From assembly GCA_964639595.1 (NCBI GenBank), contig CAZXEC010000001.1, positions 254,498 through 318,497 of the forward strand: a stretch of 64,000 nt of DNA, read 5' to 3'. This document shows positions 34,263 through 40,556 of this stretch, piece after piece (position 1 is the stretch's first letter; every line of letters starts with the position of its first letter). The notes below the pieces were generated by a model, which was not told where the DNA came from, did not search any database, and saw nothing but the letters and a program-made list of their open reading frames with translations. Source of the stretch: an uncultured Gammaproteobacteria bacterium (GTDB taxonomy: Bacteria > Patescibacteriota > Microgenomatia > CAZXEC01). A program made the position numbers and the translations under genes.

Positions 34263-34811
34263 GTTGCATTCCTTAATTCTTCTTAAGAGGTTCTGCAGGC
34301 TGTTTATACAAATCGAGTTCTATCTCCATACTTAGTTGCATTCCTTAATTCTTCTTAAGAGGTTCTGCAGGGCGTCAAAACGAGCTGGTTAAGTTGAAGT
34401 CTTAACGGTTGCATTCCTTAATTCTTCTTAAGAGGTTCTGCAGGCAAAAAGGGACGCATAACTGCATCCCGTAATTTAAGTTGCATTCCTTAATTCTTCT
34501 TAAGAGGTTCTGCAGGTTCTGATATATAATAGTTAAAAGAAGCCCGAAGTTGAAGTTGCATTCCTTAATTCTTCTTAAGAGGTTCTGCAGGTTCTAATAA
34601 TAACTGCTTAAACCCTCGTTTACTTCCAAAGTTGCATTCCTTAATTCTTCTTAAGAGGTTCTGCAGGTTAAATGCAGCTATGAAATATCATGGAGAATTT
34701 GGTTGCATTCCTTAATTCTTCTTAAGAGGTTCTGCAGGGGTGATGGCACCGCCAAAACAGGTGTTGAAGATATAGTTGCATTCCTTAATTCTTCTTAAGA
34801 GGTTCTGCAGG
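34263..34811 (-). CRISPR. CRISPR array of 8 identical 37-bp repeats (plus strand GTTGCATTCCTTAATTCTTCTTAAGAGGTTCTGCAGG) and 7 spacers of 34-39 bp
   Basis: Repeats start at 34263, 34335, 34408, 34480, 34555, 34631, 34702 and 34775. An internal CTTAA/TTAAG stem is present. The minus-strand transcription call is inferred from the cas gene orientation and from the repeat reverse complement ending in AAGGAATGCAAC (see findings). Confidence 0.95.
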
Positions 34812-35095
34812 AGCTCTGAATTTGAGGCTAAGAATTGACCTTTTAACCCCCAAATTTTTAGTGAACCCCTTTTCTGCATAAAATATGTCAAGGTTCGCAG
34901 ATTCTCTGTAAAACCCAAAGAGAAGAACTAAAAATTGTAGTGTTCAGTCCACTTTAGTCCTAAGGGGCTAAAGTTTTCCTATTGCTTTTGAACGGTAACG
35001 AGGACCTAAAGCAAGCCCACTCTACTGCTGTGCAACACAGCCCTTGCATAATTCTCAAGCATATAGCTGAGAACTCGTCGTTAAAAACGATAATA
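34812..35095. ncRNA. Non-coding region between the array and the effector gene; candidate leader and tracrRNA locus
   Basis: 284 bp without a plausible ORF. It contains repeat-like fragments: TCAAGGTTCGCAGATTCTC (34888-34906) and CTTGCATAATTCTCAAGC (35043-35060, resembling the repeat 5' half with two short deletions), plus a GCTGTG-CAA-CACAGC hairpin (35026-35040). Confidence 0.3.
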
Positions 35096-36853
35096 TCAGA
35101 TTTTTATCTCTTTGTAAAGCGCATTTGCGATATTGATTGCGGCATTTAGATCGGCATTCATATTATGGCCACATTCTCGATTAACACATCTAAAAAAACC
35201 TTTGTTTCTGTCACCAGTCTTATGACACATTGAACATATTTGCGATGTATACTCTGGATTTATAAATCTTATCGGTATTCCGGCTTTCAAGGCTTTGTAT
35301 TCAATGAGTTTTTGTAGTTTACCATAAGAAAAATTTGATAGCATAAATCTTATTTTTCTTTCTTGTAATGCAGTTCCTTTCTTGATTCTTTTTTCTCCTT
35401 GGGTAATTTTTAGCTTTTCCATTGCAATCACGATTGGTTTTAATTCTTTGGCCTGATTAACAATTTGTCTTGAAAAGTTATGGAGCATATAATCTGAAAT
35501 TCTAGCTACTTTTTTCCCAAACTGCGCCCGACGTTTATTCACACCTTTTGTCCCCGTAAACTTTTTCCTAATGAGCTGGTACTTTGTCTTTTGGGCCATT
35601 AATCCGTGGCCAGGATAAAATTTGATGAAGCAAGGTTTACCATTGGGTTTATCGACCACAGCCGTAACAGCCGTCTGATTAACGCCTCTATCTATACCCA
35701 TAATTTTAGTCTTGCTATCTATTTTCGGTTCCTCAAATTCTTGAACTAGAGGATAGCTGAGGTAAAAATTGCCCCGTTTTCTTAGCAATAGAGGATATTT
35801 AAGCTCTCCCTCTTTAATTTTTCTTATGATATCCAGAAACCAACTCTTATTTTTTTCTGATTTTATAGTATTAACGATCAGAGTAAATTTCTCTTGTTTG
35901 CCATCAATACTCAATTTCACAAATTGCTCGTTAATATCTTTTACAGATGTGTTTTGTAAATCGACAATATTCCCCTTGAAAAGTACTTTTGTTTCTTTGA
36001 GTCTTTTTTGAAGCTTTTCAATGGTTTTATTTAACGCTTCTATGGTCCCTCGTATTGTAGATTCCGTTTTACCTCTTGATGGATTCTCCTTAAAAAGAAT
36101 ATGTTTATAGCGATCAACTCTTTGGTTTTGCTGACGAGGTAATGTAAATCTACTTGTAGTGTTTTTTTGTTTTATTTCATCTTTTAATCGATTTAAAACA
36201 TCTAACACTCCTGCGTTATTTTTGTAACGTTCTAACCATTTTTTGAGAGTAGTTGATGCGATCTTGTCATTATCTAAAACTTCTTGCCATTCAATTGCTC
36301 GACGTTGCGTTATAAAAATAGTTGAGTACACATTATTTAATTGTTTTTTGTATGAATTCAGCGTATCGTTTGCGCGTTTAAAAGCTAACGCATACTCTGT
36401 GCCGGGCAATTTGACAGCATCTCTCACATCTCCATATTGGCTACGTTTTCTATTGCCTGTTGCATATAAAATCTTTCTAATTGAGAATTCTTTATTCCAA
36501 CATTTGCCACAAACTAATTCTATGCCGTCCTTCTTTTTGCGGATTATTAATGATTTCTGCCCACAAGTCTTACATATTTTATTACGGTCGTTCCTGTTCT
36601 TACCTTCTGGTTTGTGCCCTTTGCAGGATACATAACTTTTTAAGCAATAAGAGCACTTTCCATTCAATCCTTGGCTGCCACCTGTGTCCTTTTTAATAAA
36701 CTCATAATTGTTTCGTTGACCCTCTTCTACTATTTGAATTTTTTTCGCAAAAAAGTTGACAGCCTTACTAAATCTACTAAAGTATGACTCTAAAAAATCT
36801 TCCTGTGTTAAAGTAGGAACAAACTTAAAACTATATGAGGTAGTAAGTTTCAT
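35096..36853 (-). CDS. Compact type V effector, TnpB-like Cas12f/Cas14-like nuclease (585 aa)
   Basis: RuvC-I (IMGIDRGVNQTAV), RuvC-II (IVIAMEKLK) and RuvC-III (NADLNAAINIANALY) motifs. A CxxC...CxxC zinc finger (YTSQICSMCHK ... CVNRECGH) sits between RuvC-II and RuvC-III. There is an extra N-terminal Cys-rich zinc ribbon (CSYC ... CKTCGQ ... CGKCW). It is located between cas4 and the array. Confidence 0.85.
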   Translation of the reverse strand: MKLTTSYSFKFVPTLTQEDFLESYFSRFSKAVNFFAKKIQIVEEGQRNNYEFIKKDTGGSQGLNGKCSYCLKSYVSCKGHKPEGKNRNDRNKICKTCGQKSLIIRKKKDGIELVCGKCWNKEFSIRKILYATGNRKRSQYGDVRDAVKLPGTEYALAFKRANDTLNSYKKQLNNVYSTIFITQRRAIEWQEVLDNDKIASTTLKKWLERYKNNAGVLDVLNRLKDEIKQKNTTSRFTLPRQQNQRVDRYKHILFKENPSRGKTESTIRGTIEALNKTIEKLQKRLKETKVLFKGNIVDLQNTSVKDINEQFVKLSIDGKQEKFTLIVNTIKSEKNKSWFLDIIRKIKEGELKYPLLLRKRGNFYLSYPLVQEFEEPKIDSKTKIMGIDRGVNQTAVTAVVDKPNGKPCFIKFYPGHGLMAQKTKYQLIRKKFTGTKGVNKRRAQFGKKVARISDYMLHNFSRQIVNQAKELKPIVIAMEKLKITQGEKRIKKGTALQERKIRFMLSNFSYGKLQKLIEYKALKAGIPIRFINPEYTSQICSMCHKTGDRNKGFFRCVNRECGHNMNADLNAAINIANALYKEIKI

Positions 36854-36855
36854 CG

Positions 36856-37452
36856 TTAGTTAATATTCTTATAACAATTATCAATTGCTTTTCTCTTATT
36901 CCTTGTCCCCTTTGGTAATCTTTCTGATTGTATTATACTCTCAATCTCGTTAAAAATCTTTAATAATTCATCTTTTAGTGCTTTTGTAATCCTTACCCTT
37001 ATAAAGTCCCCTGATTTTAGAAACTTAACAAAACCAAACGGCACTTTATATCCTAACCTCTCTTCTATTAATAAAGCCTCCATGATAACCTGAAATTTTT
37101 GTGACAGATACAAAAATTTAGGTTTTGAACTATATTTTACTTGAATAGGATAAGCTTCATGTAGTTTTTTGTTAATTGCAACACAATCTACCTTTGTAGA
37201 GATTTTATACTTACTAGATGTCAAGTATACGTCATATATTTTAGCTAAAAACGGCAACTCTTTGATTACCTTATTTCTTCTTGACTTTCTAGAGAATTCG
37301 ACATATTTTTGCCTACCCTCGATTTCCTTAATTGTTGTAGCTTGGGGAATTTTGAGGACGTGAATGTAATATATAATTCTAGGATCATAAAGGTAATTCA
37401 TTAAGTCGGTGGCTGTTAAATAATTTTGCATCGGTTTAAATAAATATAACAT
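36856..37452 (-). CDS. cas4: Cas4-like PD-(D/E)xK nuclease-fold protein lacking the Fe-S cysteine cluster
   Basis: The N-terminus YLTATDLMNYLYDPRIIYY matches the Cas4 hTGTDhxxYxYCPR signature with Cys replaced by Asp. There is a central VDCVAI ... PIQVKY motif and a QKFQVIMEALLIEE motif (QhxxY-like). Only one C-terminal Cys is present instead of the usual three. It overlaps cas2 by 17 nt. Confidence 0.6.
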   Translation of the reverse strand: MLYLFKPMQNYLTATDLMNYLYDPRIIYYIHVLKIPQATTIKEIEGRQKYVEFSRKSRRNKVIKELPFLAKIYDVYLTSSKYKISTKVDCVAINKKLHEAYPIQVKYSSKPKFLYLSQKFQVIMEALLIEERLGYKVPFGFVKFLKSGDFIRVRITKALKDELLKIFNEIESIIQSERLPKGTRNKRKAIDNCYKNIN

Positions 37453-37720
37453 CTCTATTTTTTATTAAAAACTCATTGGCCGGCCCGAATGCAATCCTCT
37501 TTGAAAACTCCTCCTCACTTGATGGGAAGATGAGAACCTTGTCATTTTTTGATTTCATTATCTTTTTAATCTCTAAACTTAGCATTTCTGCCTTATTTCT
37601 AGTCAAATTTCCTGAAAAGGCACTTTTTTGTATCCGTTTTAACCCGTAATCCTTACAGAGATTGGATACTTTACTCCGAATATTATTTTTGGAAATATCG
37701 TAGATAACCCAATAGACCAT
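37436..37720 (-). CDS. cas2: Cas2 (94 aa)
   Basis: MVYWVIYDIS ... N-terminus with the catalytic Asp, typical length, and position between cas1 and cas4. Confidence 0.85.
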   Translation of the reverse strand: MVYWVIYDISKNNIRSKVSNLCKDYGLKRIQKSAFSGNLTRNKAEMLSLEIKKIMKSKNDKVLIFPSSEEEFSKRIAFGPANEFLIKNRDVIFI

Positions 37721-37724
37721 AGTC

Positions 37725-38714
37725 CTACTTATAAATATAAGGTGAAAAATCTCTTTTATTACCTAATAGATATGCAGAAATTTCCCTAGTCTGTGCAAGT
37801 ATGATATCTCTCAAAATTAATTTCTTACCTTTGTAAGTAAGTTTGGTATTTAGTCTGTTGATTACAGCTTGAATTAGTTTTCTTTTACCTTTTTGTGATA
37901 GTGTGAGATCACCGGTTTTATCAAAATCCTTACCATTAATCTGTTTCCTATTAAACAATGTGACTATCGCTCTGTCCGAAATAGCTACTCTAAATAACTC
38001 TGTGACGTCTAAGACCAGTGACGGTTTACCGTATCTATCTGTATGATAGAAGCCCAAGTATGGGTCAAGTCCAGCTATAATGCAGGCTCTCTCAACTTCA
38101 GAATAGAGCATGCCATATGCATAATTTAGGCAGACATTAAACATGTCTTCACCGTTTTTATTTCTTTTGGTAAATCCTGTTATAAGCCCCAGGCCCCTGA
38201 AGTATTTTGCTGCAGTTGCCCCCTCCACTCCTAAAAGTGTGCTTCTTAGTTTATCAATAGGATTACTAGTAATGAGCTTGCTTTTTGGGAATTTTGTTTT
38301 GCTTAACTGATTTAATTGTGTATTAGTTTTTCTGTCTTTTGACAGAGATTTCAAATAATTAATCTGACTTCTAATTTTGCCTTCAACGAATTTAACAATT
38401 AGATGCTTCCCCTTTTTTGATAAATATGCCTCAAGTTGTTTTCTACGAGTTAAGGTCGTTCCACCCATATATGGACTATACGTTCTGGCGAAGGGTTTCC
38501 CTTTCCAATCTAGATAAACAATATCAATATGCTTTTCAATGGCTAACTTTACAGCTTCTGTGGAGATACTGGCAGGGGCGGTAAATAACACTTGTCTGAT
38601 TGTATCAGCTGAATATTCACTTTTTTTACCTTTATTATTTACTATCAGCCTATTACCAGACTTAGTTAGGTAAGTTCCAACTTCTTCTATTGCAAGAACA
38701 GAGTTATTAATCAT
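37725..38714 (-). CDS. cas1: Cas1 integrase (329 aa)
   Basis: Typical Cas1 layout with a conserved acidic/His cluster (NYAYGMLYSEVERA ... GFYHTDRYGKPSLVLDVTELFR). It is the first gene of the minus-strand cas1-cas2-cas4-cas12 operon. Confidence 0.9.
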   Translation of the reverse strand: MINNSVLAIEEVGTYLTKSGNRLIVNNKGKKSEYSADTIRQVLFTAPASISTEAVKLAIEKHIDIVYLDWKGKPFARTYSPYMGGTTLTRRKQLEAYLSKKGKHLIVKFVEGKIRSQINYLKSLSKDRKTNTQLNQLSKTKFPKSKLITSNPIDKLRSTLLGVEGATAAKYFRGLGLITGFTKRNKNGEDMFNVCLNYAYGMLYSEVERACIIAGLDPYLGFYHTDRYGKPSLVLDVTELFRVAISDRAIVTLFNRKQINGKDFDKTGDLTLSQKGKRKLIQAVINRLNTKLTYKGKKLILRDIILAQTREISAYLLGNKRDFSPYIYK

Positions 38715-38849: not shown

Positions 38850-40556
38850 ATGGATAAAAAGGGGCTGGTAAACTGGCTGTTTGTGGCTGTGGTGGCACTG
38901 GCTGTGGTCTTGCGGTTGTATAACCTGACCCAATATCCGCCGGGGTTTACGGCTGATGAGGCGGCCATTGGCTATAATGCCTATTCGCTGCTGCAGACCG
39001 GCCGTGATGAATACGGCACGCCCTGGCCTCTGGTGTTCCGCTCCTTTGATGACTATAAACCCCCGTTATATTTCTATTTAGTGCTGCCGTTTATGGCCGT
39101 GTTGGGGCCAACCGAGCTGGCAGTGCGGCTGCCGTCGGCCTTGTTGGGGATTGGAACAGTTGTTTTGGTATATTTTCTGGCAAAGAGACTTGCTTACAGC
39201 CGACAGCAGATAGCCGACAGCTATATGCCACTGGCAGCCAGTTTCCTGCTGGCAATCAACCCCTGGCATCTGCACTATTCACGCGGCGGCTGGGAAGCCA
39301 ACGCCGGCACCTTCTTTTTGACCCTTGGCATATTTCTATTCGTCAAGTTTCTTGCAGATTCCCAATTAGCCACGCAAGGCGTCCCCTTGCGAAGCTATAG
39401 TAGCAGGGGGCCGTTATTGTTACTGATTGCTTCTGTCTTGTCTCTGATTGCCGCTTTCTACACTTATCACAGCATCAGGGTGGTGGCGCCGGTGCTGTTT
39501 GCCCTCTATGCAATACTTTTTTGGCGACAGCTCTGGCCGGCAAAAAAGGCGGTCATTTGGGCAGTGATGGCAGGAGGAGCGTTGCTTATTCCCCTGGCTC
39601 TGCAGTTTGTGTCAGGCAGTGGGGCAGCCCGCTTTGCCGGAGTGGGCATCTTTGCCGATAGCGGACCCTTTTGGCAGGTTAATCAGGCCCGGGGGGAACA
39701 TGCCAACCTAACAGGTATTGATGCCCGACTGTTCCATAATAAAGTAGCCGCCTACACCTTAAGTTTTGCCGGGCATTACCTGGATCATTTCACTGGCCAG
39801 TTCCTGTTTTTTGGCGGTGATGCCATTGGCCGCAATAACGTGCCGGAGATGGGCCAGCTGTATGTCTGGGAAATATTGACTTTAATAATTGGCTTGTGGC
39901 TGGCGGCCAGACAAGGTGGGCTACCAGCTAAAATAGTTTTGCCCTGGCTGCTTATTGCCCCGCTGGCAGCCTCACTGACCTTCCAGACGCCCCATGCTCT
40001 GCGGGCTGCCAACATGGCCGTGCCCCTGGCAATAATCTCCGGCTATGGCCTGTCTGTCCTCTTGGCCTGGATTTGGCAAATTCGCCGGGCAGCTGCGCGC
40101 TATTTGTTACTGCTGCTTACTGCCAGCTGTCTGCTGTTGGCTTTTGTTAAGTATCTGCACCAGTATTATGTCCATATTTCCCAGGAGCGGGCCCTGGAAT
40201 GGCAGTATGGTTTTGACCAATTGGTGCCGTTTGTGCTTGCCAAGCAAGATCAGTATAATAAGGTGGTCATAACCGATCGGTACGACCAGCCCTACATTCT
40301 CATGTTATTCTATTCAAAGTACGATCCCGCCCAATACCAACCCCAGGCCCAACTCTCCAGCCGCGACCGGTTTGGTTTTGGCACGGTGCGGGCTTTTGAC
40401 AAATATGAATTTAGACACATCACTCCCGATGAAGTAGAAAAGGCCACAAATACCCTGTTTGTCTTATCCGGTGATGAAGTTTATGAAGGAGTTAGTGTGC
40501 AAAAGACCATTGCCTTCCCCAATGGGAAGGTGGCTTTTGCCATGGTGGAAAAATGA
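38850..40556 (+). CDS. PMT/ArnT-like membrane glycosyltransferase, paralog 5
   Basis: DEAAIGYNAYSLL and INPWHLH motifs. It shares an identical 24-nt stretch (GGCATATTTCTATTCGTCAAGTTT) with paralog 4 (32018 vs 39320). Confidence 0.7.
   Translation: MDKKGLVNWLFVAVVALAVVLRLYNLTQYPPGFTADEAAIGYNAYSLLQTGRDEYGTPWPLVFRSFDDYKPPLYFYLVLPFMAVLGPTELAVRLPSALLGIGTVVLVYFLAKRLAYSRQQIADSYMPLAASFLLAINPWHLHYSRGGWEANAGTFFLTLGIFLFVKFLADSQLATQGVPLRSYSSRGPLLLLIASVLSLIAAFYTYHSIRVVAPVLFALYAILFWRQLWPAKKAVIWAVMAGGALLIPLALQFVSGSGAARFAGVGIFADSGPFWQVNQARGEHANLTGIDARLFHNKVAAYTLSFAGHYLDHFTGQFLFFGGDAIGRNNVPEMGQLYVWEILTLIIGLWLAARQGGLPAKIVLPWLLIAPLAASLTFQTPHALRAANMAVPLAIISGYGLSVLLAWIWQIRRAAARYLLLLLTASCLLLAFVKYLHQYYVHISQERALEWQYGFDQLVPFVLAKQDQYNKVVITDRYDQPYILMLFYSKYDPAQYQPQAQLSSRDRFGFGTVRAFDKYEFRHITPDEVEKATNTLFVLSGDEVYEGVSVQKTIAFPNGKVAFAMVEK

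Follow-up and report, generated by a model that had tools for sequence, protein, structure and literature searches.

A Cas4-like protein from putative type V-F CRISPR-Cas loci of CPR bacteria lacks the iron-sulfur cluster cysteines and has a putatively rewired active site

The window, a stretch of 64,000 nucleotides, carries a putative type V-F (Cas12f2-like) CRISPR-Cas locus whose cas4-like gene encodes a Cas4 homologue without the four cysteines that hold the iron-sulfur cluster in this family. Three residues of the canonical nuclease site are also replaced. We favour, at a probability of about 0.55, a reading in which the protein would be cluster-free, rewired and still active as a PAM-trimming nuclease; it draws on sequence comparison and on analogy with other nucleases of the superfamily. 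In a survey of the family, all Cas4 members were described as having four cysteines and the catalytic motifs (Hudaiberdiev et al. 2017, PMC5704561). Judged from the sequences, the proteins described here clearly break, across a whole clade, two supposed Cas4 invariants, and the cluster was lost more than once, in the CPR as well as the DPANN lineages. Contrary to the survey, the Cas12f-linked clade has D...QxK...E in place of D...ExK...Y, and contrary to its four-cysteine rule at least two sub-lineages appear to have dropped the cluster (PMC5704561).

In the window, the cas genes follow the order cas1-cas2-cas4-effector and then the array, all genes being on the minus strand (Table 1). Over the cas4-like interval, the plus-strand frame is full of stops in the ORF listing. 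The longest product of this gene reads MLYLFKPMQNYLTATDLMNYLYDPRIIYY...STKVDCVAI...AYPIQVKYSSKP...QKFQVIMEALLIEE...RNKRKAIDNCYKNIN, but translation probably starts at Met8, giving a CDS at 36856-37431 and a protein of 191 residues; the identical database entry P0001 begins at this residue (37431). The longest cas4 ORF overlaps the 3' end of cas2 by 17 nt. In the cas1 translation, the usual acidic and histidine catalytic positions are visible (GVEGATAAKYF; GFYHTD...LDVTELFR). The effector scored 364 bits against the Cas12f2 model NF049972, under its cutoff of 450 and over residues 230-583 only, and scored above the cutoffs of the TnpB family model NF040570 (133.6 bits) and of the TNB domain model PF07282 (73 bits). 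The CRISPR repeat, read on the plus strand, is GTTGCATTCCTTAATTCTTCTTAAGAGGTTCTGCAGG; by comparison with the Cas14a repeat, the array is presumably transcribed from the minus strand. A simple inverted-repeat scan gave no convincing anti-repeat and no tracrRNA was identified; Rfam gave no match in the window. An exact 24-mer scan of four of the seven spacers found no match among viral contigs, and no PAM was inferred.

Table 1. Features of the putative type V-F locus (coordinates are those of the window).
Feature	Coordinates	Strand	Size or composition	Basis and remarks
cas4-like gene	36856..37452	-	longest ORF 198 aa	TIGR00372, PF01930, AF2/Foldseek; Fe-S cysteines absent, D89 / Q104-x-K106 / Q121-x3-E125
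cas2	37436..37720	-	94 aa	PF09827 73.4 bits; TIGR01573 54.6 bits
cas1	37725..38714	-	329 aa	PF01867 239 bits; TIGR00287 269 bits
Cas12f2 (Cas14b)-like type V-F effector	35096..36853	-	585 aa	NF049972, NF040570, PF07282
CRISPR array	34263..34811	-	8 identical 37-nt repeats, 7 spacers of 34-39 nt	TRF period 72; exact repeat positions
Non-coding stretch between effector gene and array	34812..35095	-		presumed leader and/or tracrRNA region; position only

The locus has a GC content of 31-35% versus 42-53% in its flanks, and is inserted among paralogous genes for PMT-like glycosyltransferases. The host is a CPR bacterium, because one gene in the flanks encodes an M24 peptidase with 100% identity to a protein named as coming from Candidatus Daviesbacteria. 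The putative type V-F (Cas12f2-like) system is a low-GC island, probably acquired by this CPR bacterium (Candidatus Daviesbacteria). Wherever the contig of a relative covers the complete module, the same order cas1-cas2-cas4-effector was found (L001, L004, L006, L007, L115 and L116); in L005 and L114 the module is interrupted by the end of the contig, and one very short contig carries the cas4 gene and part of an upstream ORF only. Among the relative loci, a repeat search found arrays at L004 and L040 only. The contigs of L001 and L002, which come from other samples, end inside the first repeat and are uninformative on ongoing acquisition.

Family models and the predicted structure both identify the protein as a true homologue of Cas4. 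It scored 78.0 bits against the curated cas4 model TIGR00372 (cutoff 65) and 35.9 bits against PF01930 (DUF83; cutoff 22.7), and a profile search of solved structures retrieved the type I-C Cas4 8d3l (E 6e-8) as well as the type I-G Cas4/Cas1 7mi4. An AF2 model built from 49 homologues reached a pLDDT of 86.7 and a pTM of 0.83, the last 18 residues being of low confidence (pLDDT 60-78); it predicts the RecB/PD-(D/E)xK fold of Cas4 with a small C-terminal domain. The original prediction had been made conditional on such a fold, and the top Foldseek matches of the model were indeed Cas4 chains: 8d3l_I was best (E 1e-10, TM 0.70), followed by 7mi5, 7mi4 and 4r5q, and then by Dna2 and the Cas4 4ic1 (SSO0001); RecE (3h4r) and lambda exonuclease (3sm4) were matched as well. 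The query is thus homologous in sequence model and fold to canonical Cas4 proteins (8D3L of Alkalihalobacillus halodurans type I-C, 7MI4 of Geobacter sulfurreducens type I-G, 4R5Q or Pcal_0546, 4IC1 or SSO0001). It resembles them in its equal size, in its cas1-cas2 neighbourhood, in the motif II Asp, the motif III Lys and the Gln of motif QhxxY, and in a conserved N-terminal helix, aligned with the residues that form the PAM pocket in type I-C Cas4. Unlike them, it lacks the four Fe-S cysteines and has Tyr for the motif I His, Gln for the motif III Glu and Glu for the Tyr of QhxxY.

To define the state of the cysteines, we compared 49 close homologues and 184-206 representatives of the family. 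The canonical state is Cys23 together with C-x2-C-x5-C at the C-terminus. In the minus-strand product of the window, as announced by the original prediction, a near-perfect N-terminal Cas4 signature (YLTATDLMNYLYDPR) has Asp23 at the position of the first cluster cysteine, and the C-terminus (KRKAIDNCYKNIN) has one cysteine in place of the triad. The four ligand positions are occupied by Asp23, Ala189, Asn192 and Asn198. The lone cysteine, Cys193, is at a fifth, non-ligand position: sister proteins read C-x-D-C-C-Y-x-x-x-C, and the counterpart of Cys193 there is the non-ligand second Cys of C-x-D-C-C-Y. The possibility that cysteines or a Glu-x-Lys motif were present but offset was raised with the original prediction and is rejected by alignment with characterised Cas4 proteins; no other Cys occurs in the last 30 residues, and three alignments agree on Gln104.

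The query and 34 relatives, with at least 64% identity, form a Cys-less clade in which Asp23 is present and the CxxCx5C triad absent in every member (35/35 for each). Position 189 is variable, 192 is Asn or Ser, 198 is variable or the terminal residue, and 11 of the 35 proteins have Val, Gly or Ser instead of Cys193. Fixed changes specific to the clade cluster around the former cluster site (Leu21, Asp23, Glu171, Leu179, Lys188 and Asn/Ser192). Because the four ligand cysteines are gone and the surviving Cys193 is both non-ligand and variable, no plausible Fe-S site remains. The comparison therefore supports the claim, made at the outset for the query and extended here to its relatives, of a cas4-like protein without an iron-sulfur cluster, and probably without a metal cluster of any kind. 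The gene is under purifying selection and is not decaying, which points to a working variant: dN/dS was 0.151 between the window and L113 (dS 0.43) and 0.114 between L004 and L033, dS being saturated or not computable for other pairs, and the ORF is full-length in about 35 relatives. A pseudogene or a chance ORF is rejected by these ratios, by the relatives and by the family-model scores.

Every member of the Cys-less clade with an informative contig lies in a CPR-like bacterial setting. The neighbours are IF3, L35 and a bacterial PheRS for L004, FtsK and AlaRS for L115, and MreB, MreC, PBP2 and GreA for L116; a PMT cluster is near L114, and the source names of P0030 and P0200 are 'Patescibacteria'. 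DPANN archaea (Aenigmatarchaeota, Woesearchaeota, Micrarchaeota, Pacearchaeota and Nanoarchaeota) account for nearly all of the nearest Cys-bearing relatives, which show 47-55% identity; one Hadarchaeales MAG also contributes. These relatives are Cas4 proteins of Cas12f/Cas14 loci (for example L008 from Hadarchaeales, L014 from Woesearchaeota, L009-L013; P0035-P0046), which share with the query the operon type, the N-terminal helix and the Gln104/Glu125 variant considered below. Unlike the query, they keep YCPR and CxDCCYxxxC, and hence four ligands, and their hosts are archaea rather than CPR bacteria. As to whether related V-F loci share the Cys-less state, a question raised with the original prediction, the CPR-bacterial loci do and the nearest DPANN-archaeal loci do not. 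One loss of the cluster appears to have occurred either while the gene passed from DPANN archaea to CPR bacteria or afterwards.

A second group lacking the triad, of Pacearchaeota/Woesearchaeota/Nanoarchaeota type (L018-L020, L022-L025, L027, L030 and P0063), keeps Cys23 in most members and has lost the C-terminal triad (KKRLVDNCYRRIY). It was monophyletic in 96 of 100 bootstrap NJ trees, was placed with the Cys-bearing L021 and L028 in 94 of them, and formed a clade with the CPR proteins in none (0/100). Since it never joins the CPR clade and sits with Cys-bearing proteins, at least two independent losses are indicated, one of them within DPANN; a single ancestral loss for all cluster-less Cas4 proteins is rejected. 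Both cluster-less clades converge on Asn or Ser at ligand position 192. In a third small group (P0047, P0048 and P0060, with P0064) the triad is also absent; this group may or may not share the loss of the CPR clade (bootstrap support 34-43 of 100).

Changes in the active site were then compared with the chemistry described for canonical Cas4, in which the metal is held by side chains of motif I (His), motif II (Asp) and motif III (Glu) together with a backbone carbonyl, and in which both residues of motif QhxxY are required, the Gln being near the bound metal and the Tyr critical for activity (PMC4176176). In type I-C Cas4 the corresponding residues include H47, D82, E108 and K110, and the substitution E108A abolishes PAM cleavage (bioRxiv 10.1101/2022.05.30.494039). 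The query reads PIQVKY at motif III, as had been pointed out, and has Gln104 where the (D/E)xK motif has its acid. Gln104 lies opposite the catalytic acid in three independent alignments: phmmer against the type I-C Cas4 8d3l (PVEYK), a profile search that aligned the query with 8d3l and with 7mi4, a type I-G Cas4/Cas1 (PVDYK), and MAFFT alignments of 184 and of 206 family members. In the MAFFT column of this acid, E was found 72 times, Q 67 times and D 44 times. Asp89, Lys106 and Gln121 are kept in the query and are conserved across the family (182/184, 184/184 and 184/184, respectively). The motif I His, a metal ligand that aligns with His47 of type I-C Cas4, is replaced by Tyr50, and the Tyr of QhxxY by Glu125, so that neither motif has its canonical form; these two changes had been overlooked in the original prediction.

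In the NJ tree, Gln104 is the mark of a single 97-leaf clade that holds the Cas12f-linked Cas4 proteins, most of which keep the four cysteines. By the tree, the Gln104 change is independent of cysteine loss and ancestral to the whole Cas12f-linked clade. The earlier suggestion of a catalytically altered protein thus stands as far as the site itself is concerned, but the change from Glu to Gln is not tied to the Cys-less protein, as it had been there. Gln104 was always paired with Glu125 (67/67 and 89/89), no sequence having the former without the latter. Sequences with Glu or Asp at 104 inside the clade mostly have Gln or His at 125 (P0057, P0059, P0066, P0070 and P0075), and four have Glu at both positions (P0047, P0048, P0060 and P0153); these four look like intermediates of a path in which a second Glu was gained before the first was lost. 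In the AF2 model, the helix 116-133 that carries Glu125 comes directly after the strand 99-106 that bears Gln104 and Lys106, and Glu125 is at i+4 from Gln121, one helical turn on.

The invariance of Asp89, Lys106 and Gln121 and the coupling of Gln104 to Glu125 argue for a relocation of the catalytic Glu and against a loss of catalysis. Inactivation is not the best reading, because Gln104 is ancestral to the Cas12f-linked clade and would be compensated by Glu125. The coupling goes back mainly to a single origin within one NJ clade and so represents few independent events. From the helix geometry and by analogy, we infer that Glu125 would come to lie beside Asp89 and Lys106 and that the active site would be rewired rather than dead. 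The analogy is with the restriction endonucleases Cfr10I and Bse634I, of 'PD-xxK-E' type. In the Cfr10I site, the catalytic Glu comes from the helix after the third core beta-strand, and Glu125 on helix 116-133 is predicted to be similarly placed relative to strand 99-106. Cfr10I and Bse634I come from unrelated families of the superfamily, and the likeness would be one of mechanism only.

In the reading that we favour, the protein would be derived from Cas4, would serve the Cas1-Cas2 machinery for spacer acquisition in the putative type V-F (Cas12f2-like) system as a subunit, and would dock on Cas1-Cas2 like other Cas4 proteins. Its N-terminal helix and C-terminal domain would recognise the PAM within the 3' overhang of the prespacer; Met18, Tyr22, Ile26 and Gln37, which correspond in the alignment to residues of the type I-C PAM pocket, vary little or not at all in Cys-bearing and Cys-free members alike. 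Glu125 would supply the metal-binding carboxylate as in enzymes of Cfr10I type, and the metal site made of Asp89, Glu125 and Lys106 may cut upstream of the PAM, so that the PAM overhang would be removed before Cas1 integrates the spacer. With its four cysteine ligands gone, the protein would rely on ordinary side-chain contacts, and not on an iron staple, to keep the C-terminal domain attached to the N-terminal helix. There is precedent on both sides for dispensing with the cluster. Cys mutants of Pcal_0546 and SSO1391 without a cluster still cleave DNA (PMC4176176), but the cluster cysteines of SSO0001 mattered for activity (cited in PMC4176176), and loss of the cluster could impair function since the Fe-S domain of type I-C Cas4 carries PAM-recognition residues (bioRxiv 10.1101/2022.05.30.494039). 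Against an active enzyme, two of the three canonical side-chain metal ligands are absent in the query (Tyr50 and Gln104), and the effect of E108A in type I-C Cas4 also speaks against it (bioRxiv 10.1101/2022.05.30.494039).

The main rival is a nuclease-dead protein that would dock on Cas1-Cas2, bind and shield the PAM overhang and set the orientation of the spacer while cutting nothing, trimming being left to host exonucleases or, in some loci, to a PDDEXK_3 nuclease encoded beside cas1. A structural, PAM-sensing role of this kind had been offered as an alternative in the original prediction, and we regard it as a possible but weaker reading. Tyr50 and Gln104 at the motif I His and motif III Glu positions are what such a nuclease-dead protein would show, the loss of cleavage in type I-C E108A fits it (bioRxiv 10.1101/2022.05.30.494039), and the conserved residues of the PAM pocket would be retained. 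Furthermore, a conserved PF13366 PD-(D/E)xK gene is found directly upstream of cas1 in L004, L033, L115 and L007, all of them Cys-less, and is absent from every Cys-bearing locus examined. The presence of this gene beside cas1 in four Cys-less loci would fit an outsourcing of the cut. However, the window, L114 and L116 are without it. Asp89, Lys106, Gln121 and Glu125 are invariant over about 90 diverged sequences, which would be unexpected for an idle centre, and Gln104 never occurs without Glu125. Known systems also need Cas4 to cut or to leave before integration of the PAM end (bioRxiv 10.1101/2022.05.30.494039). The conserved Asp89, Lys106 and Gln121 together with the coupling to Glu125 favour the relocated Glu. 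An adaptation split between a reader and a cutter, in which the Cas12f-linked Cas4 would be the nuclease-dead reader, the cut would be made by the PF13366 nuclease or by host exonucleases, and the CPR lineage would in addition be cluster-free, appears unlikely.

Two further readings are much less probable than the rewired nuclease. In the first, which we consider very doubtful, a metal centre, either a single metal ion or a cluster, would be kept with unconventional ligands such as Asp23, Asp191, Asn192 and Cys193. Asp can act as a ligand of Fe-S clusters in certain proteins; the clade has Asp23 without exception and the whole family Asp191, and position 192 is always Asn or Ser, convergently in the two cluster-less clades. 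Against such a centre, the one cysteine left does not occupy a ligand position and gives way to Val, Gly or Ser in 11 of 35 members, residues 189 and 198 vary, and no Fe-S site made from one optional Cys is known. The least probable, a cas4 remnant nearing loss or a gene exapted for a job unrelated to spacer acquisition, would account for the absence of hallmark residues in a reduced host genome and has a precedent in TP1 of TTV1, an inactivated Cas4 derivative without a cluster (PMC4625639), but is contradicted by dN/dS values of 0.11-0.15, by full-length ORFs in about 35 relatives, by a gene that cas2 and the effector gene always flank within an intact operon, with arrays in the window, L004 and L040, and by a confident model with the Cas4 fold.

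Nucleases with the same core fold and no Fe-S cluster exist, and both cluster-free RecB-fold nucleases and the migration of active sites are already known. Lambda exonuclease and RecE are of this kind; unlike the query, they are not linked to CRISPR and have the canonical D-ExK site. The TTV1 nucleocapsid protein TP1 resembles the query as a Cas4 derivative able to lose the cluster, but it is split, is without motif QhxxY, has Arg in place of the Glu and is a capsid protein (PMC4625639), whereas the query is full length, linked to an operon and constrained in its active site. TP1 was the only cluster-less Cas4 derivative in the literature that we found (PMC4625639), and our literature searches on Cas4 in Cas14, Cas12f and Cas14b loci turned up no Cys-less variant.

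The clade provides a natural experiment on the purpose of the 'iron staple' and on the plasticity of the RecB-type active site. An active protein would amount to a cofactor-free Cas4 insensitive to oxygen and could ease the heterologous reconstitution of PAM-faithful spacer acquisition for miniature Cas12f systems. If it is inactive, the reading of the PAM would be separated from its cutting in adaptation, and if the reader-plus-cutter arrangement holds, this would be a Cas4-dependent mode of adaptation not yet described. A paper on Roizmanbacteria mentions only a phage Cas4-like gene, and the relatives of the protein are annotated publicly as plain 'Cas4'.

The entire CRISPR-cas locus of the window forms a low-GC island (31-35% GC vs 42-53% in the flanks) that interrupts a series of PMT-like glycosyltransferase paralogues in a Candidatus Daviesbacteria genome. 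The closest Cas4 relatives that retain the Fe-S cysteines are hosted by DPANN archaea. Combined, the base composition of the island and the archaeal hosts of these relatives suggest that the Cas12f system was transferred from archaea to bacteria. The paralogues of the series are PMT/ArnT-like membrane glycosyltransferases of 550-575 aa, and at least five are present in tandem. At L114, the locus of a relative with a cysteine-free Cas4, PMT_2 genes adjoin cas1 in the same arrangement as in the window.

The cysteine-free cas1-cas2-cas4 module is found with effectors of different sizes. In the window and in the relatives' loci L004 and L116, the effectors are 549-585 aa long, whilst at L115 and L007 a module of the window type is linked to far larger effectors. 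The adaptation module seems to have been shuffled among effector types.

Four loci, all with a Cas4 lacking the Fe-S cysteines, carry a gene for a PD-(D/E)xK nuclease of 152-156 aa directly upstream of cas1. The product matches PF13366 PDDEXK_3 (78.9 bits) and contains the motif IPDLVVW...VIDLK; pairwise identity between the copies is 51-94%. The gene was not found by tblastn in the window or in the other fetched loci, including all the cysteine-bearing ones. It may encode an accessory adaptation nuclease.

Coordinates of the features at the window locus and at related loci
Feature	Location	Remark
CRISPR-cas locus	window:34200-38800	low-GC island
PMT/ArnT-like genes	window:26454-33263, 38850-40556	
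CRISPR array	window:34263-34811	
ORF, 163 aa	window:33753-34244	immediately adjoins distal array end
YhbP-like gene	window:33266-33733	neighbour of 163-aa ORF
PDDEXK_3 nuclease gene	L004:2726-3193	upstream of cas1
PDDEXK_3 nuclease gene	L033:624-1088	upstream of cas1
PDDEXK_3 nuclease gene	L115:6256-6726	upstream of cas1
PDDEXK_3 nuclease gene	L007:1039-1497	upstream of cas1
Large effector, 813 aa	L115:8591-11032	RuvC_1, weak TNB match
Large effector, 825 aa	L007:3369-5846	RuvC_1, weak TNB match
Partial match to cas4	L040:5590-5946	
L049	Ga0209542_10000107:5050-17575	reversed
L050	Ga0209542_10000107:190952-203477	

All eight repeats of the window array are identical, the terminal repeat showing no degeneration. 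Four of its seven spacers were scanned as exact 24-mers against a collection of viral contigs, and none was found there; the ORF next to the array had no match in Pfam or NCBIfam. Related repeats are present in about 12 copies at L004 and in 4 copies at L040.

Further Cas4 homologues lie on other contigs. At L040, a 69%-identical relative is matched over residues 80-198 of the query only, although 5.5 kb of contig lie upstream; this cas4 may be truncated or frameshifted beside its 4-repeat array. The metagenomic contig Ga0209542_10000107 (208,526 bp) carries a homologue near both ends (L049 and L050), with 38% identity, opposite orientations and identical match statistics. The contig may be a linear element that ends in long inverted repeats, or the pair may have arisen as an artefact of assembly.
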